Of a stretch of 30,049 bases of DNA, positions 5,188 to 22,106 are shown in pieces; the first letter of the stretch is position 1; the number at the start of each line of letters is the position of its first letter. The notes beneath the pieces are model-generated. The model was not told the origin of the DNA. It did no database searches and saw only the letters and a list, made by a program, of their open reading frames with translations. The stretch is from a virus. Its lineage: Duplodnaviria; Heunggongvirae; Uroviricota; Caudoviricetes. The stretch lies in the IMG/VR virus record IMGVR_UViG_2667528045_000005, one strand, 5' to 3'. Both the position numbers and the translations under genes were made by a program.

Positions 5188-6393
5188 TTAGCTGTTGACC
5201 GATTCGGCCAGATTTACCAGATATTTATCGGTGATACGCTGGCGCAGGGTCAGGCTTTCCAGTGGTGGAACCGGTGTATAGTCGTAGTCGATATACAGTT
5301 TCCCTGCCTTGAGGGTTTCCTTATCGTTCGATTCCTCGTCAAACCAGCATTCACCGTCCACGATGTAGCCGTTTGATTTCAGCTCGCGGAATTTGGCGTT
5401 AATGCCGTCGACAATGTCACGGATAAGTGATGCGGTGATGGGCTTATCGACCGCCCACATGTGCGCCTCGGCCATCGTGTCGGCCAGCACCTGCGCGGTG
5501 CGGGTGTAGTTCTCAAACAGGAAAAGCGGGTCATCAGAGCAGGTGCGGTTACCCCAAAAGCGGAAGCCATCCTTACGCACCAGTGTTGTGAGCCCGGCCT
5601 CGTTGAGCAGATCAGCATCGGTGCCGGATGCCTGCAAATCCCAAAACACTGACGCACTGATGCCGGTAACACCCTGCACGCCGATGTTAGACAGGGTTTT
5701 GTGCCAGCCGACGGTCTGGTCGATATAGGCACGCAGGCCGAGTGCGCGCGCAGTTGCGTATGCCGGTGCGGTGGCGTTTGTGGTGGTATCCCATGCAAGG
5801 AAATCAGGCCAGATGACCATCAGCTCGCGCTGGCTGAAATTCTCGCGATAGGCCATCGCCTCGGAAATGGTTTTACAACCCCATGCGCTGATATAGCCAA
5901 AGGCGCGCAGGCTGATACAGACCGAAGCAAGTGCGACTGCGACCTCTTTGGTATCGAGACCCGGCACGCCGAGAATGCGCGGCTTAACGCCGGTGACTGC
6001 TTCGGCAGTCAACAGCGCCTTGATGCCGGTATATTTACCGCTCTCATCCGTGCCGCCGATGATATTGGAAATGGTCTGCGCTTCGGCGTCTTCTCCGGTA
6101 CCTTCGGCAACACGCACGACAACTGTGACAGGTTTTGACTGGTCGGCGATGGCCTGCAGGGACGCGGCCAGCGTGCCTTTTTTACCGGCTTTCGCAATGG
6201 CGCTTTGCACATTGGTAATCAGTACCGGCTCGTTGAGGGGAAAGGTTGCCGCATCCGCATCGCTGGCTGTACAGACCATGCCGACGATTGCGGTTGCAAC
6301 AGTGGAAATGACGCGGGTGCCGTCGTTAATCTCAAGCACCTGCACGCCGTGGTGAAAATCACTCATCCGGTTAACTCCGTGGTTAGTGGGCAA
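5188..6393 (-). CDS. FI: contractile tail sheath protein gpFI
   Basis: 401 aa; position and sequence typical of P2 FI sheath. Confidence 0.9.
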   Translation of the reverse strand: MPTNHGVNRMSDFHHGVQVLEINDGTRVISTVATAIVGMVCTASDADAATFPLNEPVLITNVQSAIAKAGKKGTLAASLQAIADQSKPVTVVVRVAEGTGEDAEAQTISNIIGGTDESGKYTGIKALLTAEAVTGVKPRILGVPGLDTKEVAVALASVCISLRAFGYISAWGCKTISEAMAYRENFSQRELMVIWPDFLAWDTTTNATAPAYATARALGLRAYIDQTVGWHKTLSNIGVQGVTGISASVFWDLQASGTDADLLNEAGLTTLVRKDGFRFWGNRTCSDDPLFLFENYTRTAQVLADTMAEAHMWAVDKPITASLIRDIVDGINAKFRELKSNGYIVDGECWFDEESNDKETLKAGKLYIDYDYTPVPPLESLTLRQRITDKYLVNLAESVNS

Positions 6394-6464
6394 GTGTTAT
6401 TGTCCTGGCTGGTCTGTTGAGGGGCTATTTGTCAGTGTTGGGTGATGTCTGACACATTGAGACA

Positions 6465-6707
6465 TCAGCAACGGATGCGGGAAATTTTTTGTATAGCGTT
6501 GAGATACCCGAGGCGATCCAGTTTCCAGACCACAAGCGTATCGCCCTCTGACAAGGTTCTGAGTAACCTCTTTAGCCCCGGCCAGTCTGATGTTTTGCCG
6601 CTGATTTTATCTTCGAAAATCAGCTCGCATCCTGCGCACTCCAGTTCATTTCGCTGTAATGCGGTGTTCTGGTCATTTGTTGATACACGTACATAACCGA
6701 TAAACAT
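6465..6707 (-). pseudogene. truncated Hin/Gin/Pin-family serine DNA invertase (N-terminal ~67 aa only)
   Basis: MFIGYVRVSTNDQNTALQRNELECAGCELIFEDKISGK...GDTLVVWKLDRLG aligns with the Hin N-terminus (catalytic Ser in RVST present); homology stops after DRLG and the ORF ends 13 codons later; only ~70 bp remain before the FI start. Confidence 0.75.
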
Positions 6708-6761
6708 GAGAAATAACCCGGTAAAAAGTCGGGATCATGCCAACTGAACGGAATATCTGCA

Positions 6762-6787
6762 TTTTCTAAAAGGTTGGTTTGGGAGAA
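6762..6787. other. hix/gix-like 26-bp inversion crossover site (outer site)
   Basis: TTTTCTAAAAGG TT GGTTTGGGAGAA; its inner half is the exact inverted copy of the inner half of the site at 8660-8685; in frame with the start of the alternative fibre ORF. Confidence 0.6.
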
Positions 6788-7126
6788 GCGGCTAAAAGGA
6801 ATGTAGGGACAGGGGCGAATCAGATACCTGATATGGGTAGCTTCACGCTTTCTGTTTCAGGTACTGGATATCAAAAATTACCATCAGGTTTTATTCTTCA
6901 GTGGGGCTCAATCGGCGCACCAGGCATTGCACAGGATGTAGTAACCCATTTCCCGATTGCATTTCCAAACAGATGTCTGCGTGTTTTGGTCTCACAAGAC
7001 TACACACCAGATAGCGGGGCTGTTGGTTATATTGCCTGTGCAGGTTTTAGTCCCGACCCGGTTAAATTTATATCCAGAGCCAGTACTCCTGGCCTCGGCG
7101 CTTCATTTTTAGCGTTAGGCTGTTAA
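6779..7126 (+). CDS. alternative tail-fibre C-terminal variable segment (Sv'-like), silent in this orientation
   Basis: 115-aa ORF with no ATG (begins TTG inside the crossover site); reading frame continuous with the H constant part after inversion; contains a [11 protein letters not shown]-type fibre-tip sequence. Confidence 0.55.
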
Positions 7127-7147
7127 TTTAGCTATATGGAGTGAAAA

Positions 7148-7588
7148 ATGAATTACATATATTCCGCGACTACAAACTCTTTCTATCCGCTGGAGATGAA
7201 AGAGGATTACACTCAAGCTGACTCATGGCCAGATGATGCTGTTGAAGTTGATGAGCAAGTGTATATTGAGTTTTCCGGATTACCGCCGAAAGGAAAAATC
7301 CGTATCGCTGGAGAAAATGGTTTTCCTGCATGGTCTGAAATTCCACCACCAACACATGAGGAACAGATTGCTGCAGCCGAACTGGAAAAGCAGCAACTGA
7401 TTAATCAGGTCAACGATTATATGAACAGTAAACAATGGCCTGGTAAAGCCGCTATTGGTCGTCTGAAAGATGATGAACTGGCGCAATATAATTTGTGGCT
7501 GGATTATCTGGACGCACTGGAGCTGGTCGATACTTCCGGTGCGCCAGATATTGAATGGCCTACGCCTCCGGCAGTTCAGGCCAGATGA
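7148..7588 (+). CDS. tail fibre assembly protein (alternative, U'-like)
   Basis: 146 aa, Tfa-like C-terminus (LWLDYLDALELVDTSGAPDIEWPTPP); own GGAG RBS; convergent with and overlapping the 3' end of G. Confidence 0.8.
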   Translation: MNYIYSATTNSFYPLEMKEDYTQADSWPDDAVEVDEQVYIEFSGLPPKGKIRIAGENGFPAWSEIPPPTHEEQIAAAELEKQQLINQVNDYMNSKQWPGKAAIGRLKDDELAQYNLWLDYLDALELVDTSGAPDIEWPTPPAVQAR

Positions 7589-17774: not shown

Positions 17775-19544
17775 ATGACCATTTCCACCGATACAACCTT
17801 GTTGCATGACCCGCGACGGCAGGCATCGCTGCTTTACTGGCAGGGTTTTTCCGTGCCACAGATTGCCGAAATGCTGCAGGTCAAGCGCCCGACCGTGCAG
17901 AGCTGGAAGCAGCGCGACGGCTGGGACGGCATCGCGCCGATTTCCCGCGTTGAAAGCAGCCTTGAGGCCAGGCTGATTCAGCTCATCGCCAAGCCGCAAA
18001 AGACAGGGGGTGATTTCAAAGAGATTGACCTGCTCGGACGGCAGATTGAACGGTTGGCGCGAGTCAACCGCTACAGCCAGACCGGCAACGAAGCCGACCT
18101 TAACCCCAACGTCGCCAACCGCAACAAAGGGGAGCGCAAAAAGCCGAAAAAGAATTTTTTCAGCGACGAGGCTATCGATAAACTAGAGGAATTATTTTTC
18201 GACCAGTCTTTCGAGTACCAGTTGCAGTGGTACCGCGCAGGACTGGAGCACCGTATTCGTGACATTCTCAAATCCCGCCAGATTGGCGCGACATTCTATT
18301 TCTCCCGCGAGGCACTGCTGCGCGCACTCAAAACCGGCCATAACCAGATATTTTTATCAGCCAGTAAAACGCAGGCTTACGTGTTCCGCGAATACATCAT
18401 CCAGTTTGCGCGACTGGTCGACGTTGATCTGACTGGCGACCCGATTGTCATCGGTAACAACGGCGCAAAACTGATTTTTCTCGGTACCAATTCCAACACC
18501 GCGCAGAGCCATAACGGCGATCTGTATGTCGATGAAATATTCTGGATCCCGAATTTTCAGAAACTGCGCAAAGTCGCCTCGGGCATGGCCTCGCAAAAGC
18601 ACCTGCGCTCGACCTATTTTTCGACACCTTCCACGCTGGCGCACGGCGCTTACCCCTTCTGGTCTGGCGAGCTGTTCAACAAGGGGCGCAGCCGGATTGC
18701 CGACCGCATCGAAATCGACATCAGTCACAGCGCGCTCGCCGGTGGCCAGCTCTGCGACGATGGCCAGTGGCGGCAGATTGTCACCATTGAGGACGCCCTT
18801 GCGGGTGGCTGCACCCTGTTCGACCTCGACCAGCTCAAACGCGAAAACAGTGATGAGGACTTTAAGAACCTGTTTATGTGCGAGTTTGTCGACGATAAAG
18901 CGTCGGTATTCCCGTTCGAGGAGCTGCAGCGCTGCATGGTCGATGTGATGGAGGAATGGGAGGACTTTGCCCCGTTCGCCGACCATCCGTTCGGCTCTCG
19001 TCCTGTCTGGATTGGCTACGACCCGTCACACACCGGCGACAGTGCCGGGTGCGTCGTGCTCGCGCCGCCGGTGGTCTCTGGTGGCAAGTTCCGCATGCTG
19101 GAGCGCCACCAGTGGAAGGGCATGGATTTTGCAGCACAGGCAGAGGGCATCCGCAAGCTGACCGAGAAATACAACGTCGAATACATCGGCATTGACGCAA
19201 CCGGCCTCGGTCTCGGCGTGTTCCAGCTGGTGCGCTCATTTTACCCGGCGGCACGCGGCATCCGTTACACACCTGAAATGAAAACCGCAATGGTACTCAA
19301 GGCGAAAGACACCATACGCCGTGGCTGTCTGGAGTACGACGCCGGAGCAACCGACGTCACGCAGTCGTTTATGTCCATCCGCAAAACCATGACCAGCAGC
19401 GGGCGCTGCGCCACCTATGAGGCCAGCCGCACCGAGGAAGCCAGCCACGCCGATATCGCATGGGCGACCATGCACGCCCTGTTAAACGAACCGCTTTCTG
19501 CCGGTAGCGGCATGCAGCCTAAATCTATTCTGGAGTTCAACTAA
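17775..19544 (+). CDS. P: terminase large (ATPase) subunit gpP
   Basis: 589 aa; P2 gpP-like. Confidence 0.9.
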   Translation: MTISTDTTLLHDPRRQASLLYWQGFSVPQIAEMLQVKRPTVQSWKQRDGWDGIAPISRVESSLEARLIQLIAKPQKTGGDFKEIDLLGRQIERLARVNRYSQTGNEADLNPNVANRNKGERKKPKKNFFSDEAIDKLEELFFDQSFEYQLQWYRAGLEHRIRDILKSRQIGATFYFSREALLRALKTGHNQIFLSASKTQAYVFREYIIQFARLVDVDLTGDPIVIGNNGAKLIFLGTNSNTAQSHNGDLYVDEIFWIPNFQKLRKVASGMASQKHLRSTYFSTPSTLAHGAYPFWSGELFNKGRSRIADRIEIDISHSALAGGQLCDDGQWRQIVTIEDALAGGCTLFDLDQLKRENSDEDFKNLFMCEFVDDKASVFPFEELQRCMVDVMEEWEDFAPFADHPFGSRPVWIGYDPSHTGDSAGCVVLAPPVVSGGKFRMLERHQWKGMDFAAQAEGIRKLTEKYNVEYIGIDATGLGLGVFQLVRSFYPAARGIRYTPEMKTAMVLKAKDTIRRGCLEYDAGATDVTQSFMSIRKTMTSSGRCATYEASRTEEASHADIAWATMHALLNEPLSAGSGMQPKSILEFN

Positions 19545-19545
19545 A

Positions 19546-20592
19546 ATGGGTAAACAAAAATCCCGTAAAGCCAACGCACAAAAGGCCAGCAAACCACAAC
19601 AACTGACCGCCAGCGCACCGCCAAAAACGACAGCGTTCACCTTCGGCGAGCCGGTGCCGGTACTCGATAAGCGCGACATTCTGGATTACGTCGAGTGCAT
19701 CAGTAACGGCAAATGGTACGAGCCGCCGGTCAGCTTCTCAGGGCTGGCAAAGAGCCTGCGCTCTGCCGTGCATCACAGCTCGCCAATTTATGTTAAGCGT
19801 AACGTGCTCGCGAGCACCTACATTCCGCACCCGTTGTTATCCCGTCAGGATTTCAGCCGCTTTGCGCTCGATTATCTGGTGTTCGGTAACGCCTTTCTTG
19901 AGCAGCGCCACAGCGTCACCGGCCAGTTAATCAAACTGCTGGCCTCGCCAGCCAAATACACCCGACGCGGAGTCGACGATTCGATTTTCTGGTTTGTGGA
20001 AAACTTCACCCAGCCGCACGAGTTCGCGCCTGATACCGTGTTTCACCTGCTGGAGCCCGACATTAATCAGGAGATTTACGGTCTGCCGGAATATCTCAGC
20101 GCGCTTAATTCCGCTTGGCTGAATGAATCCGCGACGCTGTTCCGCCGCAAGTATTATCAGAACGGCGCGCACGCAGGCTACATCATGTATGTGACTGACC
20201 CGGCGCAGAGCGCGACCGACGTCGAATCGCTGCGCGAGGCGATGCGCAACTCAAAAGGGCTCGGCAACTTTAAGAACCTGTTTTTCTACGCTCCCGGCGG
20301 AAAACCGGACGGCATCAAAATCGTGCCACTGAGCGAGGTCGCCACAAAGGATGACTTTTTCAACATCAAGAAGGCCAGTGCCGCCGATCTGATGGACGCG
20401 CACCGCGTACCGTTCCAGCTCATGGGCGGCAAGCCCGAGAATATCGGTTCACTCGGTGATGTTGAGAAGGTGGCAAAGGTATTTGTGCGCAACGAGCTGT
20501 CGCCGCTACAGGACAGGTTCAGGGAGGTAAATGACTGGCTCGGCATGGAGGTCATCAGATTCAAAGAGTACACCCTCGACAACCCAGAATAA
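19546..20592 (+). CDS. Q: portal protein gpQ
   Basis: 348 aa; P2 gpQ-like; 1 nt after the P stop. Confidence 0.9.
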   Translation: MGKQKSRKANAQKASKPQQLTASAPPKTTAFTFGEPVPVLDKRDILDYVECISNGKWYEPPVSFSGLAKSLRSAVHHSSPIYVKRNVLASTYIPHPLLSRQDFSRFALDYLVFGNAFLEQRHSVTGQLIKLLASPAKYTRRGVDDSIFWFVENFTQPHEFAPDTVFHLLEPDINQEIYGLPEYLSALNSAWLNESATLFRRKYYQNGAHAGYIMYVTDPAQSATDVESLREAMRNSKGLGNFKNLFFYAPGGKPDGIKIVPLSEVATKDDFFNIKKASAADLMDAHRVPFQLMGGKPENIGSLGDVEKVAKVFVRNELSPLQDRFREVNDWLGMEVIRFKEYTLDNPE

Positions 20593-20622
20593 CTTAGGCC
20601 GCCACAATCTCTGCGCTCATTA

Positions 20623-20651
20623 TTGAAGATGCAATCTGCGAAAGCTATAGT
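20623..20651 (+). promoter_or_regulatory. sigma70-like promoter (TTGAAG - 17 nt - TATAGT) for the 334-aa orphan gene
   Basis: -35 at 20623-20628, 17-nt spacer, -10 at 20646-20651; ATG at 20670. Confidence 0.45.
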
Positions 20652-20669
20652 GCATCGAATATCAAAACA

Positions 20670-21674
20670 ATGGGCGCGGAGATTAATATTTTGGAAACTG
20701 ATTTTAAAATAACCCTCGAAGGTTTCGCTACTGAGCAAGAAGCAAATAATATCGGTAATTTCACACTAGAAGCTATCCGAGCTTTAACAAAAAATCTCAA
20801 TCTTGATATCTCCAAATTAAAATGCGTGATTGTTTCCTATAACTTCAGTGAAGCTCTTCAAAAGGTAACATCCTCTTACCAACACAAATCCCCTAGTTCA
20901 TTTACCAATAGCAAACAGGGCGCAGCCGTCGGGCAGTTAGTAACAAAAATTGGCAATGATGGGCTATGTGAAGAATATACCCTTGTGCTATCGATTGATT
21001 TTTTTGTTGAGCTTTTCAATGATGGTAGCTTCTTAAAACTGAAAGAAGAAGGATACCTCGCAGTCATCCATCGCATTCACCATGAATTAGTGCACGTACA
21101 TGAAAAAAACTTACTAACATGCTTAGCCCAAAACTTTACAGTCAACGAGTATGGTAGCGCGCTTCTTATCTCAGCCACGCGTGCATGGTCTGAATATCTC
21201 GCTAATTACATGTCTTCGGGGTCTGCCCCTCAAGAAACTATCGATTTATTTTTAGAGAATCTTGACACTGTTGTAAATGAAGTATCTGACGAGATTGAAA
21301 AACTCATCTGGGGTTATAAGTACGGTAATATTTCTCTGAATGACATGTATCTTGAAGTAAAAAAACGTATCAGGCTAATCATCAACTCTTATGCTTATGC
21401 GATGGGTTATGTCCATTCTCTAAACATCAATATTAAAGAATACGATCCAAAGCTATCCCTTACACTATCCAACTCAAAGATAAGATATCAATTATCAGAA
21501 TTAGGCATTGCTTTTCAGAATCTTTATGGGAAGTTTAATGACCAGCACATTACAGGTTTTGGTGATTTTCGGGAGATAACAATAATCATTGATGAAATAT
21601 TCAAGCAGTTTGGGCTTGTTTTAGAGTGTCCCGATTGGTCTGGCGACGGTGAACTCTACATACATGTAAATTAG
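20670..21674 (+). CDS. hypothetical protein, AT-rich orphan gene; HRIHHELVHVHE segment (HExxH-like or HEPN-like)
   Basis: 334-aa intact ORF; markedly lower GC than flanking phage genes; inserted between portal Q and cos. Confidence 0.6.
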   Translation: MGAEINILETDFKITLEGFATEQEANNIGNFTLEAIRALTKNLNLDISKLKCVIVSYNFSEALQKVTSSYQHKSPSSFTNSKQGAAVGQLVTKIGNDGLCEEYTLVLSIDFFVELFNDGSFLKLKEEGYLAVIHRIHHELVHVHEKNLLTCLAQNFTVNEYGSALLISATRAWSEYLANYMSSGSAPQETIDLFLENLDTVVNEVSDEIEKLIWGYKYGNISLNDMYLEVKKRIRLIINSYAYAMGYVHSLNINIKEYDPKLSLTLSNSKIRYQLSELGIAFQNLYGKFNDQHITGFGDFREITIIIDEIFKQFGLVLECPDWSGDGELYIHVN

Positions 21675-21893
21675 TTTAATCATAGTAGAAACATAATTAG
21701 CAGTTTGAATCCTGCCACTCCTATAAAGCCGCTGCTCCTGGTGGCTTTTCCATGCACACCACCATCACGCATCAGATGCGTCTCACGCGCACGAACACAC
21801 TCGACCACCAACGAACCAGCAGCGACCACGACAGCGCCATCACGACGCGCTCAGAGGATAATTTTTATTATTATGCATCACTGCTGGCGCGCA

Positions 21894-21912
21894 ATGCTTT
21901 CCCCGCCACGCC
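21894..21912. other. cos cohesive-end sequence (186-type)
   Basis: ATGCTTTCCCCGCCACGCC is the reverse complement of GGCGTGGCGGGGAAAGCAT, the phage 186 cohesive end as I remember it (2 mismatches to P2). Confidence 0.7.
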
Positions 21913-22072
21913 TGCCCGCTTTATGGGGCGGTTTTAATGCAGTTGCATGACAACTCTGGATCCGCGCTAGCTCTGGCGGCGCACGGACAGAACGGGCAAG
22001 ACTGACGCATGCAAAACCATGCACCTAATGCATGCACGACTAAAAAACGGGAAATTCGCGGAAAAATGGCAT

Positions 22073-22106
22073 AAAAAAACCGGCATTCAGGGTGCCGGTT
22101 TTAGTC
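22073..22106. terminator. bidirectional intrinsic terminator
   Basis: A7 - CCGGCA TTCAGGG TGCCGG - TTTT; on the minus strand the hairpin is followed by seven Ts. Confidence 0.6.

Follow-up and report, generated by a model that had tools for sequence, protein, structure and literature searches.

The 30,049-nt stretch IMGVR_UViG_2667528045_000005 (hereafter, the window) is an Escherichia coli prophage of the 186 type (P2 family, Peduoviridae), in the orientation opposite to that of the phage 186 map. Between its portal gene and its cos site we identified a horizontally acquired, low-GC insert carrying a gene (20670-21674, + strand) for a predicted zincin-like metallopeptidase, which belongs to a protein family undescribed in the libraries and literature that were searched. 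The best explanation of the data as a whole, to which we give slightly less than an even chance, is that the gene is cargo of the P2 defence hotspot and that its product is a zinc metallopeptidase that would protect the lysogen. Both the hotspot and protease-based exclusion were already known, and the gene is a sound candidate for experiments rather than a discovery.

Insertion between the portal gene and cos

The left anchor of the site is the portal gene (19546-20592, + strand; homologue of 186 W and P2 Q), which follows the terminase ATPase gene (17775-19544, + strand). It was recognised as an open reading frame (ORF) that is named 'phage portal protein' in near-identical records and matches PF04860 in the Salmonella loci. 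The right anchor is the 19-nt cohesive end of cos, ATGCTTTCCCCGCCACGCC (21894-21912, no strand assigned), a sequence that recurs at the corresponding place in 78 related loci; the records of phages 186 and PSP3, both of which begin at cos, map to the same positions. The interval between the anchors measures 1301 bp, in line with the roughly 1.3 kb given in a preliminary description of the window. Eighty IMG/VR contigs with a related portal protein were surveyed, and the portal stop and cos were compared in 78 of them. The two lie 165-181 bp apart in 64 contigs, which have no insert, so the earlier statement, made for P2, that Q abuts cos holds for most of the set; the remaining 14 contain 380-2269 bp of extra DNA at this position, with different cargos.

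Alignment of the window with an empty site (L023) delimits the insert. The match ends at the portal stop (20592), and BLAST picks it up again at 21739, the stem of a terminator being present from 21728. The inserted DNA (20593-21727, + strand; ~1.14 kb) is absent from most 186/P2-like phages and has a GC content of 0.40; over the ORF at 20670-21674 the values are 0.35-0.41, compared with 0.54-0.58 in the portal and terminase genes, which bears out the contrast drawn in the preliminary description. Downstream of the cargo gene, an intrinsic terminator (GCCGCT-GCTCCT-GGTGGC-TTTT, 21728-21750, + strand; stem 21731-21745, then a T run) is a homologue of the one that follows the portal gene (W) in phage 186, which the 186 record annotates as 'W: terminator'. 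At the left junction, GGCCGCCA (20597-20604, + strand), recognised by comparison with AAGCCGCCAGCATGGCGGCTTTTT of the empty site, derives from the left arm of the same hairpin, either as a remnant or as a copy. This short GGCCGCCA copy suggests recombination within or adjoining the terminator hairpin.

The P2 defence hotspot has been defined as everything between gpA and gpQ, spanning cos (Rousset et al. 2022, PMC9122126), and the same locus was described by Vassallo et al. (2022, PMC9519451). We read the segment 20593-21727 as horizontally acquired cargo in the cos-proximal part of the gpA-gpQ hotspot. The preliminary description had equated this region with the old/tin hotspot of P2. The assignment stands under the gpA-gpQ definition and is borne out by the defence systems found at the site (see below), but old and tin themselves are situated on the gene-A side of cos, unlike the window gene, which is on the portal side.

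Coding status, start codon and expression signals

An important question is whether the ORF represents a real gene. It has homologues in 78 clusters at 90% identity, every one of which is annotated 'hypothetical', and its AlphaFold model is confident, with a predicted local distance difference test (pLDDT) score of 90.7 and a predicted template modelling score of 0.89. Purifying selection is indicated by the ratio of nonsynonymous to synonymous substitution rates (dN/dS), which is 0.22 when the E. coli and Salmonella copies are compared; the corresponding value for the portal gene is 0.05. Taken together, these three observations identify the ORF as a real gene. As previously described, it is intact and spans 334 amino acids (aa) from ATG 20670, but the start conserved in the family is probably TTG 20691, which would give 327 aa. 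We favour the TTG because a GGAG Shine-Dalgarno sequence (20678-20681, + strand) lies 9 nt upstream of it, 77% of 128 family members have a methionine aligned with residue 8, the PGAP annotation starts at this codon, the Yersinia homologue (L011) has an identical GGAG-N9-TTG arrangement without the upstream ATG, and residues 1-7 are disordered in the AlphaFold model (pLDDT below 50). Residue numbers below refer to the 334-aa form.

Two routes of expression can be considered. The sigma-70-like promoter candidate of the preliminary description (TTGAAG-17-TATAGT, 20623-20651, + strand) is present, with 9 of 12 matches, and both of its hexamers are unchanged in two Salmonella copies (L042 and L006), in which the spacer differs. 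Promoter-like sites occur in the region at chance level, however (five seen, 4.6 expected from shuffled sequence), so the match by itself is no evidence. The gene is also located on the + strand between the portal stop and the portal terminator, co-oriented with the late portal operon, and since it lies upstream of the terminator of that operon, late read-through into it is expected.

A predicted gluzincin-like zinc hydrolase

The segment HRIHHELVHVHE (residues 134-145) contains an HExxH motif, in which the preliminary description had seen a possible zincin signature. This reading is upheld, as the motif (H138-E139-L-V-H142; codons 21081-21095, + strand), placed on predicted helix 126-148, is invariant in the family alignments. 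A second motif, WxExxA (W173-S-E175-Y-L-A178-N; codons 21186-21206, + strand), lies on predicted helix 160-185, where E175 presumably provides the third zinc ligand. Across 103 aligned members, whose mean column identity is 21%, H138, E139, H142 and E175 are the sole invariant residues. An alignment of 128 sequences agrees, with H138, E139 and H142 conserved at 99-100% and E175 invariant; W173, Y176, A178, G246 and G315 are near-invariant (W173 and A178 at 94% each in the 128 sequences). The pattern HExxH-x32-WxExxA is the gluzincin signature, and for this reason we read the protein as gluzincin-type. The AlphaFold model consists of a mixed beta/alpha N-terminal subdomain, the helix with HExxH (126-148), the helix with E175 (160-185), and a helical bundle (188-313) with a terminal hairpin. 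The predicted structure thus has the conserved HExxH on an alpha-helix and the glutamate that is the candidate third ligand on the following helix.

From the alignments and the model, we conclude that these proteins probably constitute a new family of gluzincin-like zinc hydrolases, stand-alone and cytoplasmic; that the window protein is a zinc hydrolase at all we consider very probable. In such an enzyme, H138, H142 and E175 would bind zinc and E139 would serve as the catalytic base, the catalytic core being enclosed by the N-terminal beta/alpha subdomain and the C-terminal helical bundle. A zincin-like fold might instead act on a substrate other than protein, as a metal-dependent nuclease of the YbeY kind, or might form a non-catalytic binding or toxin module; we attach only a very slight probability to either variant.

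Several other assignments were considered and rejected. The segment around HExxH had also been proposed to fit the R-x(4-6)-H motif of HEPN domains. This proposal fails: at the position of R135, close homologues have L (P0055) or K (P0062), the residue does not appear among the columns that reach 60% conservation in the wide alignment, and the model predicts a beta/alpha zincin domain instead of a helical HEPN bundle. Membership in the M1 aminopeptidases was dismissed on the grounds that there is no Pfam match, that 32 residues separate HExxH from the distal glutamate instead of the 18 of M1, and that no conserved column resembling the GxMEN exopeptidase motif precedes HExxH. For the ImmA/IrrE type (M78), there is likewise no Pfam match, and over 12 individually examined genomic contexts no conserved neighbour of any kind was seen, so a partner repressor with a helix-turn-helix domain is lacking.

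Profile searches and structure prediction, as proposed earlier, gave a confident zincin-like model and no named relative. The window protein has no match in Pfam, NCBIfam or PADLOC, and in PHROGs it falls into family 11743, which bears a function-unknown label. A Pfam scan of 103 diverse family members yielded noise, the best result being two members matching Peptidase_Mx1 (E 0.0025); PDB chains searched with both family profiles returned coiled-coil noise alone, and Foldseek found no match in PDB or BFVD at E <= 0.001. Unlike the known gluzincins of clan MA(E), such as M1, M30 lugdulysin, the M9 collagenases and thermolysin (M4), the protein has no match by sequence to a Pfam peptidase family or a PDB chain, and it differs from gluzincin peptidases in being small, stand-alone and, by prediction, cytoplasmic, with its own C-terminal helical bundle. 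A comparison with 3cmn, a 'putative hydrolase with a novel fold' from Chloroflexus aurantiacus, gave 10% identity, and neither family profile detects it; having no assigned function, 3cmn adds no mechanism. In the literature searched, neither the accessions nor PHROG 11743 is mentioned, and nothing relevant to single-gene defences based on zincins or HExxH proteins was found; in the examined part of Table S5 of Rousset et al. (2022, PMC9122126), the window protein does not appear.

Distribution of the family

The gene had been called an orphan; no homologue is named, but the term is wrong. An exhaustive profile search (E <= 1e-3) recovered 355 clusters at 50% identity, mostly of 305-340 aa and matched end to end, so the family comprises at least 355 such clusters, from Gammaproteobacteria, Bradyrhizobium and Bacillota. 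Further plasmid copies in Paenibacillus, Brevibacillus, Pseudomonas and Bradyrhizobium were detected by tblastn, whereas a second, word-indexed search with the wide profile recovered mostly close relatives already seen. At the portal-cos site, the gene is patchily distributed in E. coli (26 of 5426 complete genomes). Other 186-like prophages have the same site empty (CX21) or filled with a DUF2188 gene (strain 97.3).

In Salmonella, thousands of contigs carry the gene, and it is very common in the 186-like prophages of Salmonella enterica. This abundance fits another reading of the gene, as a moron that alters the lysogen or serves host fitness outside any phage conflict, either as a stress or quality-control peptidase or as a virulence protease, secreted or injected, that resembles NleC, NleD or GtgA. 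Low-GC prophage morons with their own promoter are often virulence or fitness factors, and zinc-protease type III effectors are prophage-borne in both Salmonella and E. coli. We nevertheless regard such a role as improbable. If the product is protective, the gene could affect phage typing and the outcome of phage therapy in S. enterica, being so common there.

Three records that bear on the site deserve mention. Of the deposited phages, vB_EcoM-613R3 alone carries the gene, and directly past cos, on the gene-A side, it has an extra gene for a 313-aa hypothetical protein (L101:5751-6692) that is absent from the window; both sides of cos are thus occupied in this phage. Around the gene, a prophage of E. 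coli MB06232 matches the window at 99.9% identity. In this prophage (L001:1478-2279), truncated major-capsid and tail-assembly pseudogenes abut each other, which indicates an internal deletion; it is a defective copy with an intact zincin gene. Strain 97.3 of E. coli O68:H12 has a group II intron reverse transcriptase/maturase gene (ltrA; L002:5188-6675) inserted between a DinI-like gene and replication gene A of the same 186-like prophage that has DUF2188 at its portal-to-cos site.

Cargo at the same site in related prophages

Which genes occupy the portal-to-cos interval when the zincin gene does not? A type I CBASS made up of a cyclase (E 3e-160) and a 2TM effector fills it in one related contig (L071), PD-T4-4 A and B in another (L099), and an NsnA/PD-T4-2_A-like DUF262 protein with a partner in a third (L070). 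DUF2188, which corresponds to the PADLOC candidate PDC-S16, is present at five loci. Three loci (L020, L024 and L025; about 6047-7431) encode a P-loop protein of 407-411 aa (GERGIGKS), whose sole match is a weak one to PDC-S59 (E 8e-8). In IMGVR_UViG_2731957861_000005 (L062:1464-3140, minus strand), the interval holds an unrecognised gene pair with a GC content of 0.37, encoding proteins of 272 aa and 241 aa, the latter with an N-terminal hydrophobic segment; PADLOC has no match for either protein, and we regard the pair as another defence candidate. Low GC is common to all these cargos. The content of the interval therefore varies, which was the question behind the comparison suggested in the preliminary description. 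The zincin gene resembles the other cargo of the hotspot in lying between gpA and gpQ, in its low GC and patchy occurrence, and in that known defence systems replace it: the exact site is shared with CBASS, PD-T4-4, NsnA-like and DUF2188 genes, and its content differs among otherwise similar phages.

The gene differs from this cargo in one conspicuous respect. All the recognised defence cargos at the site converge with the portal gene, being on the minus strand and downstream of its terminator, whereas the zincin gene follows the orientation of the late operon and precedes the terminator; in addition, its product is in no defence library searched. The site thus has two insertion geometries, co-oriented upstream of the portal terminator or convergent downstream of it. 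Whatever the function of the gene, this refines the map of the P2 hotspot, in which the short stretch from portal gene to cos counts as a separate site of insertion.

This arrangement gives weight to an explanation in which the protease serves the phage itself, as a late accessory or counter-defence enzyme that during lytic growth would degrade proteins of host defence, of stress responses or of rival elements such as P4-type satellites, and that would leave the lysogen unprotected. Transcripts of the terminase/portal operon should enter the gene, the recognised defence cargos are all arranged in the opposite way, and defence and counter-defence genes are known to occur together in phage hotspots. 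Conversely, the gene is preceded by a conserved promoter-like site and a Shine-Dalgarno sequence of its own, and homologues of 21-50% identity are found in chromosomal and plasmid defence islands without nearby phage structural genes, which would be unusual for counter-defence. On balance we consider this explanation rather unlikely, while the read-through implied by the placement leads us to keep a role in the phage's own lytic cycle under consideration.

Genomic contexts of family members elsewhere

Outside the portal-cos site, family members in the examined contexts are always solo genes and reside in mobile or defence islands. In Colwellia (40% identity to the window protein), the neighbours are Shedu SduA (1e-152), a TIR protein and a PD-T4-7-like gene, and on a metagenome contig (21% identity) they are E1-E2-JAB, PDC-M48B, AbiD and an LmuA-like protein. 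A pAgo-associated (Aga) nuclease and a resolvase accompany the Serratia homologue (59%), and an integrase, DUF2188 and a resolvase that of Enterobacter (63%). On a Paenibacillus plasmid (~27%), Pycsar and CoiA are nearby; the Yersinia copy (59%) occupies the hotspot of a diverged P2-like prophage, and that of Kosakonia (50%) is found with a YafO toxin and phage remnants. The association of the family with defence genes is thus established for distant members as well as at the phage site.

In both Serratia (L010:5042-5614) and Enterobacter (L013:5116-5685), a divergent gene for a serine resolvase of ~190 aa precedes the zincin gene. In Enterobacter, DUF2188 adjoins as well, the same small gene that fills the portal-to-cos site of other 186-like prophages. 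These genes may belong to a shared cargo pool that moves between islands and the P2 hotspot.

Proposed function

How could such a protein protect a lysogen? The nearest known parallel is Lit (Peptidase U49), which prophage e14 encodes: a HExxH protease acting alone, it cuts EF-Tu once late T4 infection supplies the Gol peptide. Like Lit, the window protein is prophage-encoded, solo and, by prediction, a cytoplasmic HExxH zinc protease of ~300 aa, and we propose Lit as a functional analogue. The two differ in the spacing to the distal glutamate and in domain make-up; hhalign of Lit with the family profile aligned 17 columns around HExxH with a probability of 14%, and the PADLOC and Pfam models gave no match. 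Homology beyond the HExxH motif is accordingly rejected.

We propose that the protein is a soluble, cytoplasmic, stand-alone gluzincin-type zinc metallopeptidase that would be expressed in the lysogen from its own promoter, with an additional contribution from late portal operon read-through, and would shield the lysogen from other phages by proteolysis. In the likeliest mode, by analogy with Lit, the protease would be latent until an infecting phage triggers it or provides its substrate, whereupon it would cut an essential host factor or a phage protein, and this cleavage would abort or block the infection. The genomic context lends much better support than before to an anti-phage role, which the preliminary description had offered as a conjecture and which is still one; we judge its chances to be evenly balanced. 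A triggered, abortive mechanism of the Lit kind, suggested by analogy, appears doubtful. A more specific proposal, which we advance tentatively as possible rather than probable, is that the protein is the enterobacterial member of a new and widespread one-gene, protease-based anti-phage system without homology to Lit or to catalogued defence proteins, in which the C-terminal helical domain would act as a phage sensor that unlocks the gluzincin active site.

Published success rates help to place these estimates. More than one third of the unknown hotspot cargos that were cloned proved active (PMC9122126), as did six of eight randomly chosen unknown loci of the P4 hotspot (10.64898/2026.02.27.708500). 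A number of points weigh against protection of the lysogen. For P2 proteins of unknown kind, machine learning puts antiviral function at only 15-32% (10.64898/2026.02.27.708500), and hotspots and defence islands also carry toxin-antitoxin, counter-defence and unrelated cargo. To these must be added the orientation of the gene, which is exceptional among the recognised defence cargos, the lack of a sequence relationship to Lit or any PADLOC model, and the Shewanella, Brevibacillus and Pseudomonas contexts, which include no recognised defence gene and are uninformative.

If protection of the lysogen were confirmed, the gene would add a protease-only, one-gene immune module, of which Lit is so far, to our knowledge, almost the sole mechanistically understood example. 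Several hundred clusters of bacterial proteins that now lack any annotation would thereby acquire a family name and a function.

Other features of the interval

Other possible genes in and around the insert were also evaluated. Two minus-strand ORFs of 66 and 56 aa within it and an ORF of 150 aa over the 3' end of the portal gene received no support, and the sole Rfam match in the search for an RNA gene in the interval is sub-threshold and lies outside the insert. In near-identical prophages, RefSeq annotates a 61-aa 'hypothetical protein' (WP_000557532.1) that corresponds to 21752-21937 (+ strand); this ORF is probably spurious because it spans the conserved non-coding DNA between the terminator and cos as well as the cos cleavage site. 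Finally, ~170 bp past cos and before the small minus-strand genes of the tum/DinI region, there is a strong terminator-like hairpin of 12 pairs (22076-22102, + strand; AAAACCGGCA...TGCCGGTTTT).
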